Shown here piece by piece: positions 31,908-43,828 of a stretch of 64,000 nt of DNA. Within the stretch, counting starts at the first letter, position 1, and each line of letters opens with the position of its first letter. The notes beneath the pieces were generated by a model. It made no database searches. It had not been told where the DNA came from and saw only the letters and a program-made list of their open reading frames with translations. The stretch is from sequence record OQ561750; one strand, written 5' to 3'. Both the position numbers and the translations under genes were made by a program. This DNA is from Escherichia phage LHE83.

Positions 31908-32144
31908 ATGGAAGCTTTAATCGTTAGTGCTGGTGTTTTAGGATTCGGTTCTCTGGTTATTATGTTCATCGGTTACTTTTTACCATGGATTCTGGCTCTT
32001 CTGCGAGGCACTCGTAGTAATGTCGGAATTTTCTTCCTTAATCTCCTGTTAGGCTGGACGATGATTGGTTGGGTAGTGGCTTTAATCTGGGCTATCGTCG
32101 CTGAACGTAAATCAAACGCACAAATCATTATTGTTAAGCAATGA
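31908..32144 (+). CDS. imm: superinfection immunity protein Imm-like
   Basis: 78 aa, two transmembrane segments; FFLNLLLGWTMIGWVVALIWA resembles the Imm family signature; syntenic with T4 imm downstream of 43. Confidence 0.65.
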   Translation: MEALIVSAGVLGFGSLVIMFIGYFLPWILALLRGTRSNVGIFFLNLLLGWTMIGWVVALIWAIVAERKSNAQIIIVKQ

Positions 32145-32285
32145 AAATAATTATTTTATTTCTTATAATGACTGCCTTTACCATTTATTGGGCAGTGGCA
32201 ATTCCGCCAATGATTCCGACACTCATCATTGGATGGATTATTCTTATAGCACAAATTAAGTATAACTGTTTTAATTGAGGATATT

Positions 32286-32786
32286 ATGAAAAAGTTAATT
32301 ATCGCAATGAGTATGCTCCTATCAGGTTGCGCGGTCCAATATGGTGATACAGTTTCGGCTGATGAAGTTGGTAAAGCTCGTATCGCAGCTGAACAGAAAC
32401 AATTCGATGGCGAAATGAAATTCCGTGCAGGTTCTGGACTTGTGTACACCCGAGCTAATAATCAATGCGGTAATAACTGTGCAAAATATGCTCAACAAGA
32501 AATCGAATTCCAACGTGAACAAGAGTCCAAGCGTGAAGCGGTACTAGCCAAACACCAGGCAGAAATGAAGCGTCAAGATGATTTGTACAAAAAGCAGAAA
32601 CTGTATGCGATGTGCGTAAACCATATCAATCTACAGATTTCCATCCACGAGGCTCGTTATTACGAAATGCTCGAAACCGAGAGCTTCGGTAAAGCTCGTG
32701 ATTATAAGAAACAAATCGATAAGCTCAAGACCAAAGCACCGGCGGCAATAGAACAGTGTATTGAAATCGGTAAAGATAAGATTTAA
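32286..32786 (+). CDS. hypothetical lipoprotein
   Basis: Signal peptide with LSGC lipobox; charged helical remainder. Confidence 0.55.
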   Translation: MKKLIIAMSMLLSGCAVQYGDTVSADEVGKARIAAEQKQFDGEMKFRAGSGLVYTRANNQCGNNCAKYAQQEIEFQREQESKREAVLAKHQAEMKRQDDLYKKQKLYAMCVNHINLQISIHEARYYEMLETESFGKARDYKKQIDKLKTKAPAAIEQCIEIGKDKI

Positions 32787-32846
32787 GCAATACCAATTTA
32801 TTAAAAATAGTGTATAATGTACCTACATTCACTTGAGGAACAGATA

Positions 32847-34520
32847 ATGAAAAAGGTTGTTATTTTAGGCGCGGGTCTTGGCTCACGGTTGTATCCAATT
32901 ACCAACGAAATCCCGAAGGTACTGGTTAACTACAAACAACATACTGTATTAAAACATTTGTATGATTTGTATAGTAATCAATCAGATGAAATTATTCTGG
33001 TTATTCACAGCAAATTTAACGACCTCGTTAAAGGCTATATTAAATCCATTAACATGATTAATAGTGATAAGCCTAAATTCACTATTCGTAACGTTGATGT
33101 TGCCAATGGTTCGGCTCATGCTATCGATTGCATTGCCGAAGATATCATTGGGCACAATGTCTTGTTTAACTGGTGTGATATTATTCCTGAAGGTCATAAA
33201 GTTGAGTGGGATAACGACTACTGTTATACCTATGGGACCGACTGTCGTTTTACATTTGAAGAACCGTACTTGCGTGAAATTGGTACCGGTGGTGGCGTAG
33301 TTGGCTTGTATCAGGTGGCTAATTGGACAGGTTTCGACCGTTCTAATTATGGTGAAGACCTTGCTGACAACCTGGATTCAATGGTCCATTTGACTGAACG
33401 TAAGTTAGACTTTGTAGTTGATGTTGGTGACAAACTGAAACTGGCTAAGGCCCATGAAGATTCTGAAATTAACCGTGAATTTAATAAATTAGAGTTCACT
33501 GAGAATCTAGCTATTAAAGTACCTACAAACGAATTAGGTAAAGAAATCCAATCTAAAGAAATCAATTGGTACAATTCTATTGATTCTGAATTCGTTCCTA
33601 GCATTGTAGACTTTGCTCCAGGTGAATTCATTAAAATGGAACGTATCTTTGGTCGAACCATGGCAGATGCCTACCGGTTTATGTCTAAAGAAACTAAAGT
33701 CCTAATGGTTTATAAGGTTATTAGTGCATTACGTTCGTTCGGTGGAACTATCGATAATCCGTCCGATGAGCAATGGTATTCTGATGTTAAGAAAGAAGTA
33801 TTGGACAAGGTCCTTATTCGTAATGCTTCTATTGCCGGATTGATTGAAGGCTTTGCTCCACAGGGTATTACCCATGTTAACGACTTCAAGGTAGGCGACC
33901 CAGAAAAACTTCTTCGTCACGCCTTAGAAATTCTGTCTGAACATAAAGAACCGTACCAACTTATTCATGGCGACCCGCACTACAGTAATATTATGTTGTC
34001 GGACGAAGGTAATATTAAAATCATCGACCCACGTGGTTATTTTGGTAATAGTTCTAAAGGCCCTGCGATTTATGATGAAGCTAAGGTGCTTTATTCTATC
34101 GATGGTTATGACAAATTTAACTCTGACCCTCTATGGGGTGGCTTAACTCGTAACGGAACTCGTGTATTCGTTGATATTGAAAAGGTTATGCCTTTAGATG
34201 ATATTCCGATGTGTACATTTAAGCACAAGCTCTGGATTGCCGTTATTTGGATGGCATTGGCAGGTTACTTTAAAAATAACCCTCTGAAAGCTCTGGGCGC
34301 TTATTACAATGGGCTATATCAACTGAGTGTGCTGCTGAAGCGGCATCCTCGTAAGCGTAAGCTTATCACAGGTGAATTCGTTGATGAAGTTCGCGACCCT
34401 ATCACGGCTCAAATTATCACTCGTTGTCCTGATAAGTGGGTTTTGCTTGACCAGGAAACTGGTGTAAAATATAAACCTACAGGTTCTACCGAACTCCACA
34501 AACAATGGAAGAAAATTTAA
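32847..34520 (+). CDS. bifunctional nucleotidyltransferase / kinase (LicC- or MurU-like N-terminus, APH/choline-kinase-like C-terminus)
   Basis: ATG after GAGGA Shine-Dalgarno; N-terminal KVVILGAGLGSRLYPIT sugar-phosphate nucleotidyltransferase motif; C-terminal IHGDPHYSNIML...IIDPRGY kinase catalytic-loop pattern. Confidence 0.7.
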   Translation: MKKVVILGAGLGSRLYPITNEIPKVLVNYKQHTVLKHLYDLYSNQSDEIILVIHSKFNDLVKGYIKSINMINSDKPKFTIRNVDVANGSAHAIDCIAEDIIGHNVLFNWCDIIPEGHKVEWDNDYCYTYGTDCRFTFEEPYLREIGTGGGVVGLYQVANWTGFDRSNYGEDLADNLDSMVHLTERKLDFVVDVGDKLKLAKAHEDSEINREFNKLEFTENLAIKVPTNELGKEIQSKEINWYNSIDSEFVPSIVDFAPGEFIKMERIFGRTMADAYRFMSKETKVLMVYKVISALRSFGGTIDNPSDEQWYSDVKKEVLDKVLIRNASIAGLIEGFAPQGITHVNDFKVGDPEKLLRHALEILSEHKEPYQLIHGDPHYSNIMLSDEGNIKIIDPRGYFGNSSKGPAIYDEAKVLYSIDGYDKFNSDPLWGGLTRNGTRVFVDIEKVMPLDDIPMCTFKHKLWIAVIWMALAGYFKNNPLKALGAYYNGLYQLSVLLKRHPRKRKLITGEFVDEVRDPITAQIITRCPDKWVLLDQETGVKYKPTGSTELHKQWKKI

Positions 34521-34879
34521 TGCATCTGTGTTTTGATATCGATAATACCATTACTCACTGGCAAGATGACCGTGATTACGAAAACTTTAAACCGGACACC
34601 GAAATGGTGTCCATGATTAATAAGCTTTATGATGAAGGGTACGAGATTACCTTGTTCACTGCCCGTGGTATGACTTCATGCGGCCCGGGTCGAATCTTGG
34701 TTGAAGTAGTTCCTGCATTAGTTAAGAACCTTGAAAAGATTGGATTGAAATATCACAATCTGCTTACACATAAGCCGAGTTATACTTTTATCATCGATGA
34801 CCGAGCAATCCGTCCTGACCACTTTAAAGAAATGGTTCGTGAAGGAACTCTTGAAACCTATAAGGCATATCATCCGTGA
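34520..34879 (+). CDS. HAD-superfamily phosphatase
   Basis: TAATG coupling to the upstream gene; motif I FDIDNTIT (DxDxT) near the N-terminus; LFTARG motif II-like. Confidence 0.6.
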   Translation: MHLCFDIDNTITHWQDDRDYENFKPDTEMVSMINKLYDEGYEITLFTARGMTSCGPGRILVEVVPALVKNLEKIGLKYHNLLTHKPSYTFIIDDRAIRPDHFKEMVREGTLETYKAYHP

Positions 34880-35412
34880 AACCAAAAATCATTGTTATCG
34901 ACGGCCCGGATAATTCCGGGAAGTCTACTTTAATTGAATCACTTTTATCTGATAAGAAATATCGTCTTATTGATTTCCCTAAAAAGATTAATGGCAAATG
35001 CATTTCATTAGGGACCGATAATGACAAGGCTTTAGTCGAGACGTTGTATAAGTTTTTAGACCCTAATTTCGTTTACATCCTTGACCGTGGTTATCCAAGT
35101 AATATTGTTTACTCGGGATTCCTTCGCGGTGAAATGGACCCTTATGTAGAACTGGAAGATTGGAAAAGGTTTAAATCTGAATTCAATATTATTGAGGTTA
35201 TTTTAACCCGTAATCCACTGGATAAAGACTTTGAAGATGACCTTATTAAATTAACCAAAGATGAGTTCAACCTAACTATCCGGCAATATGAAACATGTTT
35301 TGAAAACGTGTTTAAAATCTTAAATCACGACGGCCATAATAACTTGCTTAACGTCGATATGGTAGAATTAAAACGTCTGAATGAATATATTGAAAATAAG
35401 GTGAATAAATGA
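34876..35412 (+). CDS. P-loop kinase (nucleoside/nucleotide-kinase-like)
   Basis: GTG start overlapping the upstream stop; KIIVIDGPDNSGKSTL Walker A resembles dNMP or small-molecule P-loop kinases. Confidence 0.55.
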   Translation: MKPKIIVIDGPDNSGKSTLIESLLSDKKYRLIDFPKKINGKCISLGTDNDKALVETLYKFLDPNFVYILDRGYPSNIVYSGFLRGEMDPYVELEDWKRFKSEFNIIEVILTRNPLDKDFEDDLIKLTKDEFNLTIRQYETCFENVFKILNHDGHNNLLNVDMVELKRLNEYIENKVNK

Positions 35413-36107
35413 AACACATTACCGCTGTTAGTTTTGAAAACGCGTTTAAGCAAATGAACGAAGAAATCCTGGAAGCTCCACAGTTTGCAGTTGATTCTCG
35501 TATCGGCCGTTGTTATGAAATTGGTTCTGCTTCGGTAGAAGTACTGGATGCAAGCACCTATAAATTCACCGACCCTCGTATTAATCGTATCAACTATGAT
35601 TATGCCGAATCTTTCTGGAAGTTTATGATTTCTGGTGGTACTGACGCCGCCGAAGCATTTAAGGAATACCCTAATGTTGCTAAGTTCATTGATAAGCCGA
35701 AAAGTGACGTATTGCCTGCAAACTTCAACACTTTCTATGGACCTAGAATTGTGGCCCAACTCCCAGCCTTACTTAAAGAGCTTAAAGAGAAGCCTAACTC
35801 AAGACGAGTTGTGTTCCAAATTCTCCAAGAACAAGACCAAGCCCTCCTTGATTCTGACGAATCCTTAGAATATCCATGTACTGATTCAGTGACATATTAT
35901 ATTCGTGATGGACGTCTTTATGCACATACCCATATGCGTTCACAGAACTGTGCTATTGTTATGCAGCTGGATTTCTATCTGCAGGGTAAACTGATGGCCT
36001 TTATTGCTGAACAGTGTGGTGTTGGTCTGGGTACGTATTCCCATACTATGGTTAGTGCACACGTATTTGAACGTGATTTTGACTACGTTCGAGGATTCCT
36101 GAAATGA
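35409..36107 (+). CDS. 42: dCMP hydroxymethylase (thymidylate-synthase fold)
   Basis: KPNSRRVVF, YPCTDSVTYYIRDG...HMRSQN and VSAHVFER align with T4 gp42 active-site segments from memory; syntenic position. Confidence 0.75.
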   Translation: MKHITAVSFENAFKQMNEEILEAPQFAVDSRIGRCYEIGSASVEVLDASTYKFTDPRINRINYDYAESFWKFMISGGTDAAEAFKEYPNVAKFIDKPKSDVLPANFNTFYGPRIVAQLPALLKELKEKPNSRRVVFQILQEQDQALLDSDESLEYPCTDSVTYYIRDGRLYAHTHMRSQNCAIVMQLDFYLQGKLMAFIAEQCGVGLGTYSHTMVSAHVFERDFDYVRGFLK

Positions 36108-36997
36108 GTTTGTTTATCGTTCCTATTTTCAGTATGCGTAGTTACGAAACAGGTGAATATGCCGTCCTTAAGGACGGTAATTTTCAACTCCATTTAAACC
36201 GTGCTTGCCCAGGTGATTATCTGGCTTATCCTAGAAATTCGAGCGATATCAAAGAATGCATTGAATTATTTCCTGAACTGAATTTTGTACCTCTTTGGTA
36301 TAAAGAAAATGCTTATGAAACTCGTAAACATTTTTGGTCTGAAAATGAGTTCGTTGTTGATTCGTTAATCGAATACTATGACTGCTCAGGATTGGTAACC
36401 GATATCACAGGTTATGATGGTGCTCATACCGTACAATTCAACTTTAACATTACAATGGACCCTGAAGTTCCTCGTTATTACATCGATGAGTTTATTGATA
36501 CCGACGTGGGTTCAGTTGAACGTTCGATTTATACCACAGTCCTGAATCAATGCCAGAAAGACGTCCTGGTGTCACGAGGTGCGTCCTCTGATAAGATTTT
36601 TGTAGACCAAAAGGTAATTAATCCGGCAGTAATTGAGCGTTACTCTGAAGGCCTAGCGCCTATTAAAATTGATGGTATTTTCCATCCATTCCGTATCTCT
36701 GATAAATGTTATCAATTCGAAAGAGTTGTAGACCAAGCTGCGGCTGAAGGTTCTCGCCTTTATATCACCGATCCGAATGATTCATTTAAGCGTGAAGACT
36801 ATCGTCCTGATGTAGAGATTATTAAATTCAAACCGAGTAAGGTTGAATATTATCAGATTCTGAAATCAAGACCTCATATCATTTATCATGAGAATCCCAG
36901 TTTAGTATTTCATCCTGGTCTAGCTGAATTCATTTATTTCGGTGCCCATATCCATTCTGAGCACGAAATGCCAAGTTATGAGGACGTGGTCCTTTAA
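36104..36997 (+). CDS. hypothetical protein in the beta-glucosyltransferase slot (putative DNA glycosyltransferase)
   Basis: ATGA-coupled to gene 42 and directly upstream of uvsX, where T4 carries beta-gt; no recognisable similarity to T4 beta-gt. Confidence 0.45.
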   Translation: MSLFIVPIFSMRSYETGEYAVLKDGNFQLHLNRACPGDYLAYPRNSSDIKECIELFPELNFVPLWYKENAYETRKHFWSENEFVVDSLIEYYDCSGLVTDITGYDGAHTVQFNFNITMDPEVPRYYIDEFIDTDVGSVERSIYTTVLNQCQKDVLVSRGASSDKIFVDQKVINPAVIERYSEGLAPIKIDGIFHPFRISDKCYQFERVVDQAAAEGSRLYITDPNDSFKREDYRPDVEIIKFKPSKVEYYQILKSRPHIIYHENPSLVFHPGLAEFIYFGAHIHSEHEMPSYEDVVL

Positions 36998-37074
36998 CGC
37001 TGTAAATGTGAAGTGATATAATTACCCTATCTTAAAACGTGAGTAAAATATAATGATGCCTATGGAAAAATATA

Positions 37075-38247
37075 ATGTCTGATTTAAAATCCCGTTTGAT
37101 TAAAGCTTCTACTTCTAAAATGACTGCCGACCTGACCAAATCTAAATTGTTTAATGGTCGTGACGAAGTTCCTACTCGTATCCCTATGCTGAATATTGCA
37201 TTAGGCGGTGCGTTGAATGCAGGCTTACAATCAGGTTTGACAATCTTTGCTGCTCCATCTAAACACTTTAAAACGTTGTTTGGACTTACCATGGTTGCGG
37301 CATATATGAAGAAATATCCAGACGCAATTTGTTTGTTCTACGACTCTGAGTTTGGTGCTTCAGAATCTTATTTCCGTTCGATGGGTGTTGATTTAGAACG
37401 TGTGGTTCATACACCAATCCAGTCAGTCGAACAGCTTAAAGTTGATATGACCAACCAATTAGAAGAAATTACTCGTGGCGAAAAGGTTATTATCTTTATC
37501 GACTCCATCGGTAACACTGCTTCTAAGAAAGAAACCGAAGATGCTTTGAACGAGAAAGTTGTAGGTGATATGACTCGTGCTAAATCACTGAAATCTCTGT
37601 TCCGTATCGTAACACCTTATCTGACCATCAAGGATATCCCTTGTGTAGCAATTAACCACACGGCTATGGAAATTGGTGGAATGTACCCTAAAGAGATTAT
37701 GGGTGGTGGTACTGGTATTCTGTACTCTGCTTCTACCGTGTTCTTTATCTCTAAACGTCAGGTTAAAGATGGTACTGAGCTCACTGGTTATGACTTCACA
37801 CTGAAGGCCGAGAAATCTCGTACGGTTAAAGAGAAATCAACGTTCCCGATTACAGTGAACTTCGAAGGTGGTATCGACCCATTCAGTGGATTGCTTGAAA
37901 TGGCTACTGATATTGGCTTTGTCGTGAAACCTAAAGCTGGCTGGTATAATCGTGCATTCCTTGACGAAACCACAGGCGAAATGGTTCAAGAAGAAAAAGC
38001 ATGGCGTGCTAAAGCTACTGATTGTGTTGAGTTCTGGGGACCACTGTTTAAACATGCTCCGTTCCGTGAAGCAATCGAGAATAAGTATAAGCTTGGTGCA
38101 ATTAATTCTATTAAAGAAGTTGACGATGCGGTTAATGACCTTATTAACTCTCGTGTCTCTAAGAACGTTGCTGTTAAATTAGGTGGTAATGCCCAAAGCG
38201 CCGCTGATATCGAAAACGATTTGGAAGAGATGGATTTAGATGACTGA
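37075..38247 (+). CDS. uvsX: RecA-like recombinase UvsX
   Basis: 390 aa; MSDLKSRLIKASTS...; Walker A APSKHFKT region; near-identical to T4 UvsX from memory. Confidence 0.9.
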   Translation: MSDLKSRLIKASTSKMTADLTKSKLFNGRDEVPTRIPMLNIALGGALNAGLQSGLTIFAAPSKHFKTLFGLTMVAAYMKKYPDAICLFYDSEFGASESYFRSMGVDLERVVHTPIQSVEQLKVDMTNQLEEITRGEKVIIFIDSIGNTASKKETEDALNEKVVGDMTRAKSLKSLFRIVTPYLTIKDIPCVAINHTAMEIGGMYPKEIMGGGTGILYSASTVFFISKRQVKDGTELTGYDFTLKAEKSRTVKEKSTFPITVNFEGGIDPFSGLLEMATDIGFVVKPKAGWYNRAFLDETTGEMVQEEKAWRAKATDCVEFWGPLFKHAPFREAIENKYKLGAINSIKEVDDAVNDLINSRVSKNVAVKLGGNAQSAADIENDLEEMDLDD

Positions 38248-43306: not shown

Positions 43307-43828
43307 ATGGCACACTTTAACGAATGCTCACAACTTATTGCTGGTGTTGATAAAGCTGAGGAAGCTTATTTTAATGCTCTGATTCACGAAGATAAAGACC
43401 CTCTGCAGGTTATGCTTGATATGCAGAAATCATTACAGGTCCGTTTGGCTAAAGATAAACCTGAATATAACCGTCATCCTGATGACTTGGCTACTGCAGG
43501 TGAAGTTGTTGATTGGTTGCGCAATCAGAAAGATTATATTGATGATGAATTCCGCGAACTTCTGACTTCTCTTGGTGGCATGAGCAATGGCGAAAAAGAT
43601 GCGAGCGCTGTATGGAAGCCTTGGAAAGCTCAACATGCTGAACGTCGTGAAACCCTGATTAACGATTTGTCTCCTGAAGACCAGCTCGAAATTAAATTCG
43701 AAATGATTGATATTCTGCACTTTGTTCTGAATATGTTCCAAGGTCTTGGACTGACTGCTGAAGAAATCTTTAAACTGTATTACCTGAAAAATGCCGAGAA
43801 CTTTGCTCGCCAGGACCGAGGTTATTAA
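43307..43828 (+). CDS. 56: dCTPase/dUTPase gp56
   Basis: MAHFNECSQLIAGVDKAEE...DPLQVMLDMQ...EIFKLYYLKNAENFARQDRGY near-identical to T4 gp56 from memory. Confidence 0.9.
   Translation: MAHFNECSQLIAGVDKAEEAYFNALIHEDKDPLQVMLDMQKSLQVRLAKDKPEYNRHPDDLATAGEVVDWLRNQKDYIDDEFRELLTSLGGMSNGEKDASAVWKPWKAQHAERRETLINDLSPEDQLEIKFEMIDILHFVLNMFQGLGLTAEEIFKLYYLKNAENFARQDRGY

Follow-up and report, generated by a model that had tools for sequence, protein, structure and literature searches.

The gene studied here lies at positions 32847-34520 on the plus strand of a 64,000-nucleotide stretch of Escherichia phage LHE83 (sequence record OQ561750), the whole of which is called the window below. It is an unbroken open reading frame (ORF) of 557 codons plus stop, encoding a nucleotidyltransferase domain followed by a kinase domain in a single chain. 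We consider it very probable that the product is the AfhE orthologue of a T4-like phage of the genus Dhakavirus and makes uridine diphosphate (UDP)-arabinofuranose as the sugar donor for phage DNA hypermodification, by the pathway proposed for its relatives. The features of the gene and its product are listed here.

32835-32839 (+): Shine-Dalgarno sequence GAGGA, read from the sequence, 7 nt 5′ of the ATG at 32847
32847-34520 (+): AfhE-type bifunctional enzyme, 557 residues, predicted D-arabinose-5-phosphate 1-kinase and UDP-D-arabinofuranose pyrophosphorylase
32847-33461 (+): N-terminal nucleotidyltransferase domain, about residues 1-205, with the signature G10-x-G-x-R14 ... P23-K24
33462-34340 (+): C-terminal APH/choline-kinase-fold kinase domain, about residues 206-498, with key residues K224, E238, H374-G-D376, N381 and D394
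34341-34517 (+): C-terminal tail of about 59 residues (499-557), basic, with short beta-strands, delimited by the structural model and by homologue coverage

Both halves of the protein are recognisable individually. The motif KVVILGAGLGSRLYPITNEIPKVLV at residues 3-27 is accompanied by a Pfam NTP_transferase match (residues 3-100, E 2.4e-8), and LIHGDPHYSNIML...IKIIDPRGYFG at residues 372-400 by a Pfam APH match (residues 346-417, E 8.8e-6), with both matches exceeding the gathering score. The initial annotation, made from the letters of the sequence, had assigned the N-terminus to nucleotidyltransferases of the LicC, MurU and RmlA type and the C-terminus to the APH/choline-kinase fold, and both assignments hold. 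We aligned 92 homologues including the window protein (30-81% identical) and used the alignment for an AlphaFold2 model. G10, R14, P23 and K24 of the transferase and K224, E238, H374, G375, D376, N381 and D394 of the kinase are invariant in this alignment, by which measure the catalytic residues of both domains are intact. Structure prediction, which had been suggested as a check, gave a confident model (mean predicted local distance difference test score, pLDDT, 94.6; predicted template modelling score, pTM, 0.91) with the LicA/LicC and AmgK/MurU pairs ranking high among the structural matches. By structure, relatives of the kinase include LicA, APHs and maltokinase, and HddC was matched too. 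The likeness to LicA/LicC and AmgK/MurU is at the level of the fold, at 11-16% identity. The NCBIfam MurU model scores 24 bits against a cut-off of 370, so that curated cut-offs are missed by far. A sequence search of the PDB found no solved AfhE and only weak matches to the N-terminal transferase (HddC, E 2.8e-4; LicC, E 1e-3).

The C-terminal tail is modelled at pLDDT 86-93 with its strands within residues 503-556. It is kept in close homologues (at least 39% identical, with full-length coverage), whereas distant ones, which cover 87-89% of the query, lack it, as do the metagenomic four-domain fusions described below, one of which (P0093) terminates at the position aligned to residue 498. 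This element may serve in docking or oligomerisation.

The fusion is far beyond chance, because full-length proteins with the same domain order are found in 368 phage records and because the window protein matches PHROG 4098 from end to end (positions 1-557 of 559, E 5e-269); the earlier reading of the gene as one 557-residue fusion protein was therefore correct. In tblastn, RB69 gp53 and then gp52 are colinear with the whole protein (44% and 41% identity, E 2e-46 and 2e-72), and Lee et al. (2026; PMC13326640) regard these two RB69 ORFs as a single gene that a sequencing error has divided. Global identity of the fusion is 45% to RB69 gp52:53 and 48% to that of Acinetobacter phage DLP3. A search of phage records gave 100% coverage and E values of about 1e-124 to orthologues from Mosigvirus and Acinetobacter phages, with about 44% identity to the DLP1/DLP3 group. 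The homologues also include those of Serratia phage 92A1 (47%), the DNA of which carries arabinosylated 5-hydroxycytosine, and of Shewanella phage Thanatos-1 (44%), Thanatos DNA being mono-arabinosylated (Lee et al., 2026; PMC13326640).

AfhE of Escherichia phage HY126, RB69 gp52:53 and DLP3 gp82 share with the window protein the two domains and their order, a similar length (553-563 residues), alignment over the full length and the catalytic residues. Their genes likewise adjoin a gene for an AfhF-type HAD phosphatase, in a cluster that is bounded by gp43 and uvsX and includes a 5-hydroxy-deoxycytidine monophosphate (5-hydroxy-dCMP) synthase and an arabinosyltransferase as well. The window protein is set apart from them by an identity of only about 45-48% and by its long branch. 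Judged by sequence, the window gene is the Dhakavirus orthologue of AfhE, RB69 gp52:53 and DLP3 gp82. A route of this kind had been thought unusual for a phage, and the transferase-then-kinase order of the fusion notable. Neither remark stands, since the order is the norm of a family spread over the phage records counted above, and it has a precedent in Bacteroides FKP, an L-fucokinase/GDP-fucose (guanosine diphosphate-fucose) pyrophosphorylase in which an N-terminal pyrophosphorylase precedes a C-terminal kinase and which carries out consecutive steps of free-sugar salvage. FKP is thus alike in being bifunctional and in its domain order, but its kinase half is of the GHMP type and not homologous, and its role is true salvage of a free sugar. 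RB69 ORF53_52 itself was put forward in 2018 as a candidate for UDP-arabinose synthesis (PMC6024577).

Positions 32000-37100 of the window are 99.0-99.6% identical to Salmonella phage vB_SalD_ABTNLS3 and to Escherichia phages E33, QL01 and WG01, and 97% identical to Bp7. These relatives belong to the genus Dhakavirus (Tevenvirinae, T4-like), and by this degree of identity the window phage is a Dhakavirus. The fusion gene is the first of five overlapping genes that run from 32847 to 36997 and are flanked by the gene for DNA polymerase gp43 (then imm and a small lipoprotein gene) and by uvsX. Its stop codon overlaps the start of the HAD gene as TAATG and the next three junctions are 4-nt overlaps, so the five genes form a translationally coupled operon. 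The mechanical ORF list also holds a longer in-frame version of the fusion from an ATG at 32817. We prefer the ATG at 32847 because the GAGGA lies upstream of it and because the GenBank entry of the 100%-identical QL01 protein starts at the equivalent position. Within 32805-32820 (+), about 30 nt 5′ of the preferred start, is a TATAAT hexamer that shares bases with the ATG at 32817 (TATAATG) and may be the -10 element of the operon promoter. A promoter and terminator scan across the operon gave sites no more numerous than in shuffled sequence, and this generic scan did not list the hexamer.

The four genes downstream of the fusion gene are as follows.

34520-34879 (+): HAD-superfamily phosphatase of the AfhF type, 119 residues, 62% identical to RB69 gp51, predicted to remove the 5-phosphate
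34876-35412 (+): P-loop nucleotide kinase resembling deoxythymidine monophosphate (dTMP) kinase, 178 residues, 37% identical to RB69 gp45, PHROG 761, with weak Pfam and NCBIfam kinase matches
35409-36107 (+): thymidylate-synthase homologue, 232 residues, predicted 5-hydroxy-dCMP synthase, 78-79% identical to RB69 gp48
36104-36997 (+): putative first DNA arabinosyltransferase, 297 residues, 70% and 64% identical to RB69 gp47 and gp46 (67% overall)

The HAD protein matches the solved structure 9iqw (E 1.6e-51, about 62% identical) and TIGR01689, a capsule-biosynthesis phosphatase family (E 1.9e-14), and has 1xpj as a further relative of solved structure. In RefSeq phage records and in PHROG 1238 the protein is labelled 'phosphoheptose isomerase', a propagated misnomer, as the sequence is that of a HAD-family phosphatase on the evidence of TIGR01689, 9iqw and 1xpj. 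A second HAD-like match at 43400-43621 (E 0.007) is regarded as spurious; coordinate mapping puts it in the region of the gp56 deoxycytidine triphosphatase (dCTPase). The dTMP-kinase-like protein is proposed to act on the modified nucleotide. The synthase homologue matches the solved structures 9iqu, 9iqc and 9ir2 (E 1.5e-125, about 79% identical), and the synthase in those entries is near-identical to RB69 gp48 and not to the window protein. We take 9iqu, 9iqc, 9ir2 and 9iqw to be HY126 proteins of He et al., in which case HY126 would be RB69-like and not a Dhakavirus. Aligned with RB69 gp48, phage td and E. coli ThyA, the window synthase has the catalytic Cys (PCTDS), D169N (MRSQN) and N177D; D169N is given in E. 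coli ThyA numbering, and the QL01 td row of the alignment is in the same register. RB69 gp48 is by experiment a flavin-dependent 5-hydroxy-dCMP synthase, for which D169N is diagnostic (PMC13326640). The 297-residue glycosyltransferase matches PHROG 3891 (E 8e-159) and has no Pfam match; the first arabinosyltransferase is described as GT-B-like, with RB69 gp47 and gp46 again parts of one gene that was divided through a sequencing error (PMC13326640).

Published work already covers the enzyme family with its architecture, genomic context and mechanism. Thomas et al. (2018; PMC6024577) proposed that RB69 ORF53_52 and the adjacent isomerase ORF055 synthesize UDP-arabinose, and the pathway to DNA with arabinosylated 5-hydroxycytosine has since been laid out by Lee et al. 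(2026; PMC13326640), citing Mahler et al. (2025) and He et al. (2026). As He et al. are summarised there, HY126 AfhE is a D-arabinose-5-phosphate kinase that is also a UDP-D-arabinose pyrophosphorylase and that converts D-arabinose-5-phosphate to arabinofuranose-1,5-bisphosphate. The same account places AfhF, a Mg-dependent HAD phosphatase, between the two AfhE reactions, and it lets the route start with the conversion of ribulose-5-phosphate to arabinose-5-phosphate by a SIS isomerase and end with one or more glycosyltransferases acting on 5-hydroxycytosine (PMC13326640). DLP3 transferases accepted UDP-arabinofuranose in vitro, and the lineages listed as having the syntenic cluster include the Dhakaviruses (Lee et al., 2026; PMC13326640).

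Carried over to the window, this pathway would have the C-terminal kinase transfer a phosphate from ATP to the anomeric hydroxyl of D-arabinose-5-phosphate, giving arabinofuranose-1,5-bisphosphate. The HAD phosphatase encoded immediately downstream would strip the 5-phosphate, and the N-terminal nucleotidyltransferase would join the resulting arabinofuranose-1-phosphate to uridine triphosphate (UTP) to form UDP-arabinofuranose. The thymidylate-synthase homologue would supply 5-hydroxy-dCMP, the source of 5-hydroxycytosine, onto which the 297-residue glycosyltransferase would move the arabinose. What the present analysis itself shows of this scheme is the domain architecture, the intact catalytic residues, the orthology, the synteny and the synthase's D169N signature; the substrates, the order of the steps and the use of UTP would follow the published biochemistry of orthologues of about 45% identity. 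The initial annotation had foreseen an anomeric phosphorylation and an activation with a nucleotide, both of which agree with the literature on the orthologues as summarised by Lee et al., but it had them as consecutive steps and the same summary places the HAD phosphatase between them (PMC13326640).

The logic of the proposed route is the same as that of the heptose-nucleotide pathway of Gram-negative bacteria (GmhA, HldE or HddA, GmhB, HldE or HddC), a parallel that draws also on the structural match to HddC. In HldE a ribokinase-like kinase comes first and is joined to a cytidylyltransferase-like transferase, and HddA is a GHMP kinase. Here, in contrast, a kinase of the APH/choline-kinase fold follows the transferase, the substrate would be a pentose and the product would go onto DNA and not onto lipopolysaccharide or capsule. 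The other systems that combine an APH-like kinase with a minimal RmlA-like nucleotidyltransferase are LicA/LicC (choline kinase and the cytidine triphosphate (CTP):phosphocholine cytidylyltransferase) and AmgK/MurU (anomeric kinase for N-acetylmuramic acid, MurNAc, and uridylyltransferase), which take an unphosphorylated substrate through consecutive steps and are usually separate proteins. They differ from the window protein in the low identity noted above and in their roles, phosphocholine decoration or cell-wall recycling.

These parallels bear on how the substrate is read. A pair like LicA/LicC would activate choline or another small alcohol as a cytidine diphosphate (CDP)-alcohol for decoration of the host or phage surface. 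Beyond the fold-level likeness, the sequence identity to LicA/LicC-type proteins is only 11-16%, the gene is translationally coupled to DNA-modification genes, its homologues are fused to or co-occur with a sugar-phosphate isomerase and a phosphatase, and the neighbourhood holds no choline-transfer gene. We rejected this reading on genomic context and regard its probability as practically negligible. Salvage of a free sugar deserves slightly more attention. In such a route the HAD phosphatase would make free arabinose from arabinose-5-phosphate, the kinase would act on it at C1 and the transferase would yield nucleoside diphosphate (NDP)-arabinose, the two domains thus working consecutively. 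Table 1 of PMC13326640 is worded in this sense, stating that the HAD protein 'dephosphorylates Araf5p to Ara' and that the kinase 'phosphorylates Ara to Araf1p', and the structural relatives of the kinase (LicA, APHs, maltokinase) use unphosphorylated alcohols or sugars. The AfhE substrate reported in the summary of He et al. is, on the other hand, already phosphorylated, being D-arabinose-5-phosphate, and the genomic context is one of DNA hypermodification. We therefore do not retain the initially annotated salvage, whether of a free sugar or of a small alcohol, and consider the free-arabinose route very unlikely.

Several points weigh against the AfhE pathway as we apply it to this phage. 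Its mechanism is taken from the summary by Lee et al. of He et al. (2026) and Mahler et al. (2025), and the searchable literature holds no enzymology or DNA chemistry for any Dhakavirus. By tblastn the RB69 isomerase gp55 (gp83 in DLP3) matches nothing in the window or across the whole of QL01 (best E 1.7), the second RB69 arabinosyltransferase, gp3, has no homologue in the window or the complete QL01 genome (best E in QL01, 1.3), and the U32-like gp50 has none in the window or the complete QL01 genome. The fusion of the Dhakavirus, Marfavirus and Proteus-phage clade is about 45% identical to RB69 gp52:53 compared with 59% between RB69 and DLP3, and it carries the catalytic-loop substitutions N378H and F379Y relative to the other close homologues.

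The Dhakavirus cluster thus differs from that of RB69 in lacking gp55, gp50 and gp3, and also gp49, which has no homologue in the window or the complete QL01 genome either (best E values for the four in QL01, 0.4-7.5). It differs as well in having the kinase-like gene between the HAD and synthase genes. None of eight larger QL01 hypothetical proteins has a glycosyltransferase Pfam match, a weak negative since the first transferase is also without one. Phage records with the isomerase number 276 and those with the fusion 368, and the organisms tallied for the isomerase include no Klebsiella, Proteus or Vibrio phages. The Klebsiella Marfavirus PhiKpNIH-6 carries a U32-like gene along with a fusion 82% identical to that of the window, but its gp43-uvsX cluster is without an isomerase gene. 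The other close homologues of the fusion come from T4-like phages or related contigs; identity among them is 54-78%, and between them and the Dhakavirus-type clade about 45%. By comparison gp43 (83%), UvsX (90%), the synthase, the HAD protein and the transferase agree with the phylogeny expected. The discordantly low identity to RB69 places the fusion of this clade on a long branch. Its divergence coincides with the absence of the isomerase gene, a direct neighbour of the fusion gene in RB69 and DLP3.

A shift in specificity is one rival reading of this clade. The divergent Dhakavirus/Marfavirus enzyme could use another host pentose phosphate (e.g., ribose-5-phosphate) or another nucleoside triphosphate (NTP), and the DNA glycan would then be unlike that of RB69. 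The long branch itself, the absence of the isomerase from the whole QL01 genome and of the Klebsiella (Marfavirus) phages from the isomerase-carrying phage records, and the two loop changes all fit this idea, and we found no published chemistry for the genus Dhakavirus. Against it, the glycosyltransferase, which has to recognise the donor, is 67% identical to RB69 gp47:46, and the HAD protein and the synthase are 62% and 78% identical to their RB69 counterparts. Among 155 columns highly conserved in the close homologues, 143 are unchanged in the Dhakavirus clade. The remaining 12 are altered mostly conservatively, N378H and F379Y being the non-conservative exception, and several carry residues found in distant homologues, so that this clade-specific test does not support a specificity switch behind the long branch. 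The phage isomerase would be dispensable because E. coli makes arabinose-5-phosphate itself by means of KdsD and GutQ. Dhakaviruses are, moreover, among the conserved-cluster lineages of Lee et al. (PMC13326640). We rate this explanation slightly below the free-arabinose route. The more general proposition, that the enzyme of the Dhakavirus, Marfavirus and Proteus-phage clade is a functionally shifted sub-family using another host sugar phosphate or nucleotide and producing an undescribed DNA glycan, is unlikely. If true, it would mean, at the least, a phage DNA modification directly dependent on the host pool of precursors (KdsD/GutQ) for 3-deoxy-D-manno-oct-2-ulosonic acid (Kdo).

We read the clade enzyme as keeping the function of its AfhE orthologues. 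Its arabinose-5-phosphate would be drawn from the Kdo pathway of the host, through KdsD and GutQ. Since only one arabinosyltransferase is recognisable, and di- or tri-arabinosylation goes with a second or third (RB69 gp3; DLP3 gp76/77), the DNA of Dhakaviruses is predicted to be mono-arabinosylated.

To our knowledge enterobacteria do not normally make UDP-arabinofuranose, so the phage must supply its own route to it. The fusion enzyme would be the core of that route and hence of the path to arabinosyl-5-hydroxycytosine DNA. DNA of this kind is protected from many restriction enzymes and CRISPR nucleases, and type IV systems in turn recognise it. As the family and the mechanism have been published (a prediction in 2018, chemistry and biochemistry in 2025-2026), the window adds nothing fundamental to them. 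It does expose outdated GenBank labels, in which the fusion is a 'hypothetical protein' or 'GlmU' and its neighbour a 'phosphoheptose isomerase'. It also defines a minimal five-gene cluster without a phage isomerase, a U32-like protein or a second transferase, and leads to the prediction that Dhakaviruses carry mono-arabinosylated 5-hydroxycytosine made from host-supplied arabinose-5-phosphate. Phage-therapy collections make use of Dhakaviruses. What interest remains attaches to the minimal cluster and to the enzyme on the long branch.

Upstream of the operon, between imm and the fusion gene, a 166-residue ORF at 32286-32786 (+) begins with a lipoprotein-type signal (MKKLIIAMSMLLSGC...) and belongs to PHROG 1754 (unknown function). 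It has no counterpart within the RB69 cluster. Just 5′ of it, positions 32168-32275 are 58% identical to the tiny RB69 ORF054.

Fusion homologues also occur in other settings. Three metagenomic proteins (P0068, P0074 and P0093, 922-946 residues) combine a HAD domain, a SIS isomerase, the nucleotidyltransferase and the kinase in one chain, which provides a Rosetta-stone link among the four activities. The contig that encodes P0093 (L008 14-2854) has 23% GC, and a sulfotransferase gene adjoins. In the Sphingomonas jumbo phage PAU (L010 5026-9187, gp212-gp216) the homologue is gp215, with an arabinose-5-phosphate isomerase, gp212, three genes 5′ of it, and a 316-kb phage-like contig (L009 7297-9665) has a SIS gene immediately upstream of its fusion homologue. 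These jumbo-phage homologues are 28-33% identical and lie outside the T4-like family Straboviridae. A tblastn search of the PAU and L009 stretches found no homologues of the HAD protein, synthase or glycosyltransferase of the window, and in those jumbo phages the sugar nucleotide may serve another acceptor.

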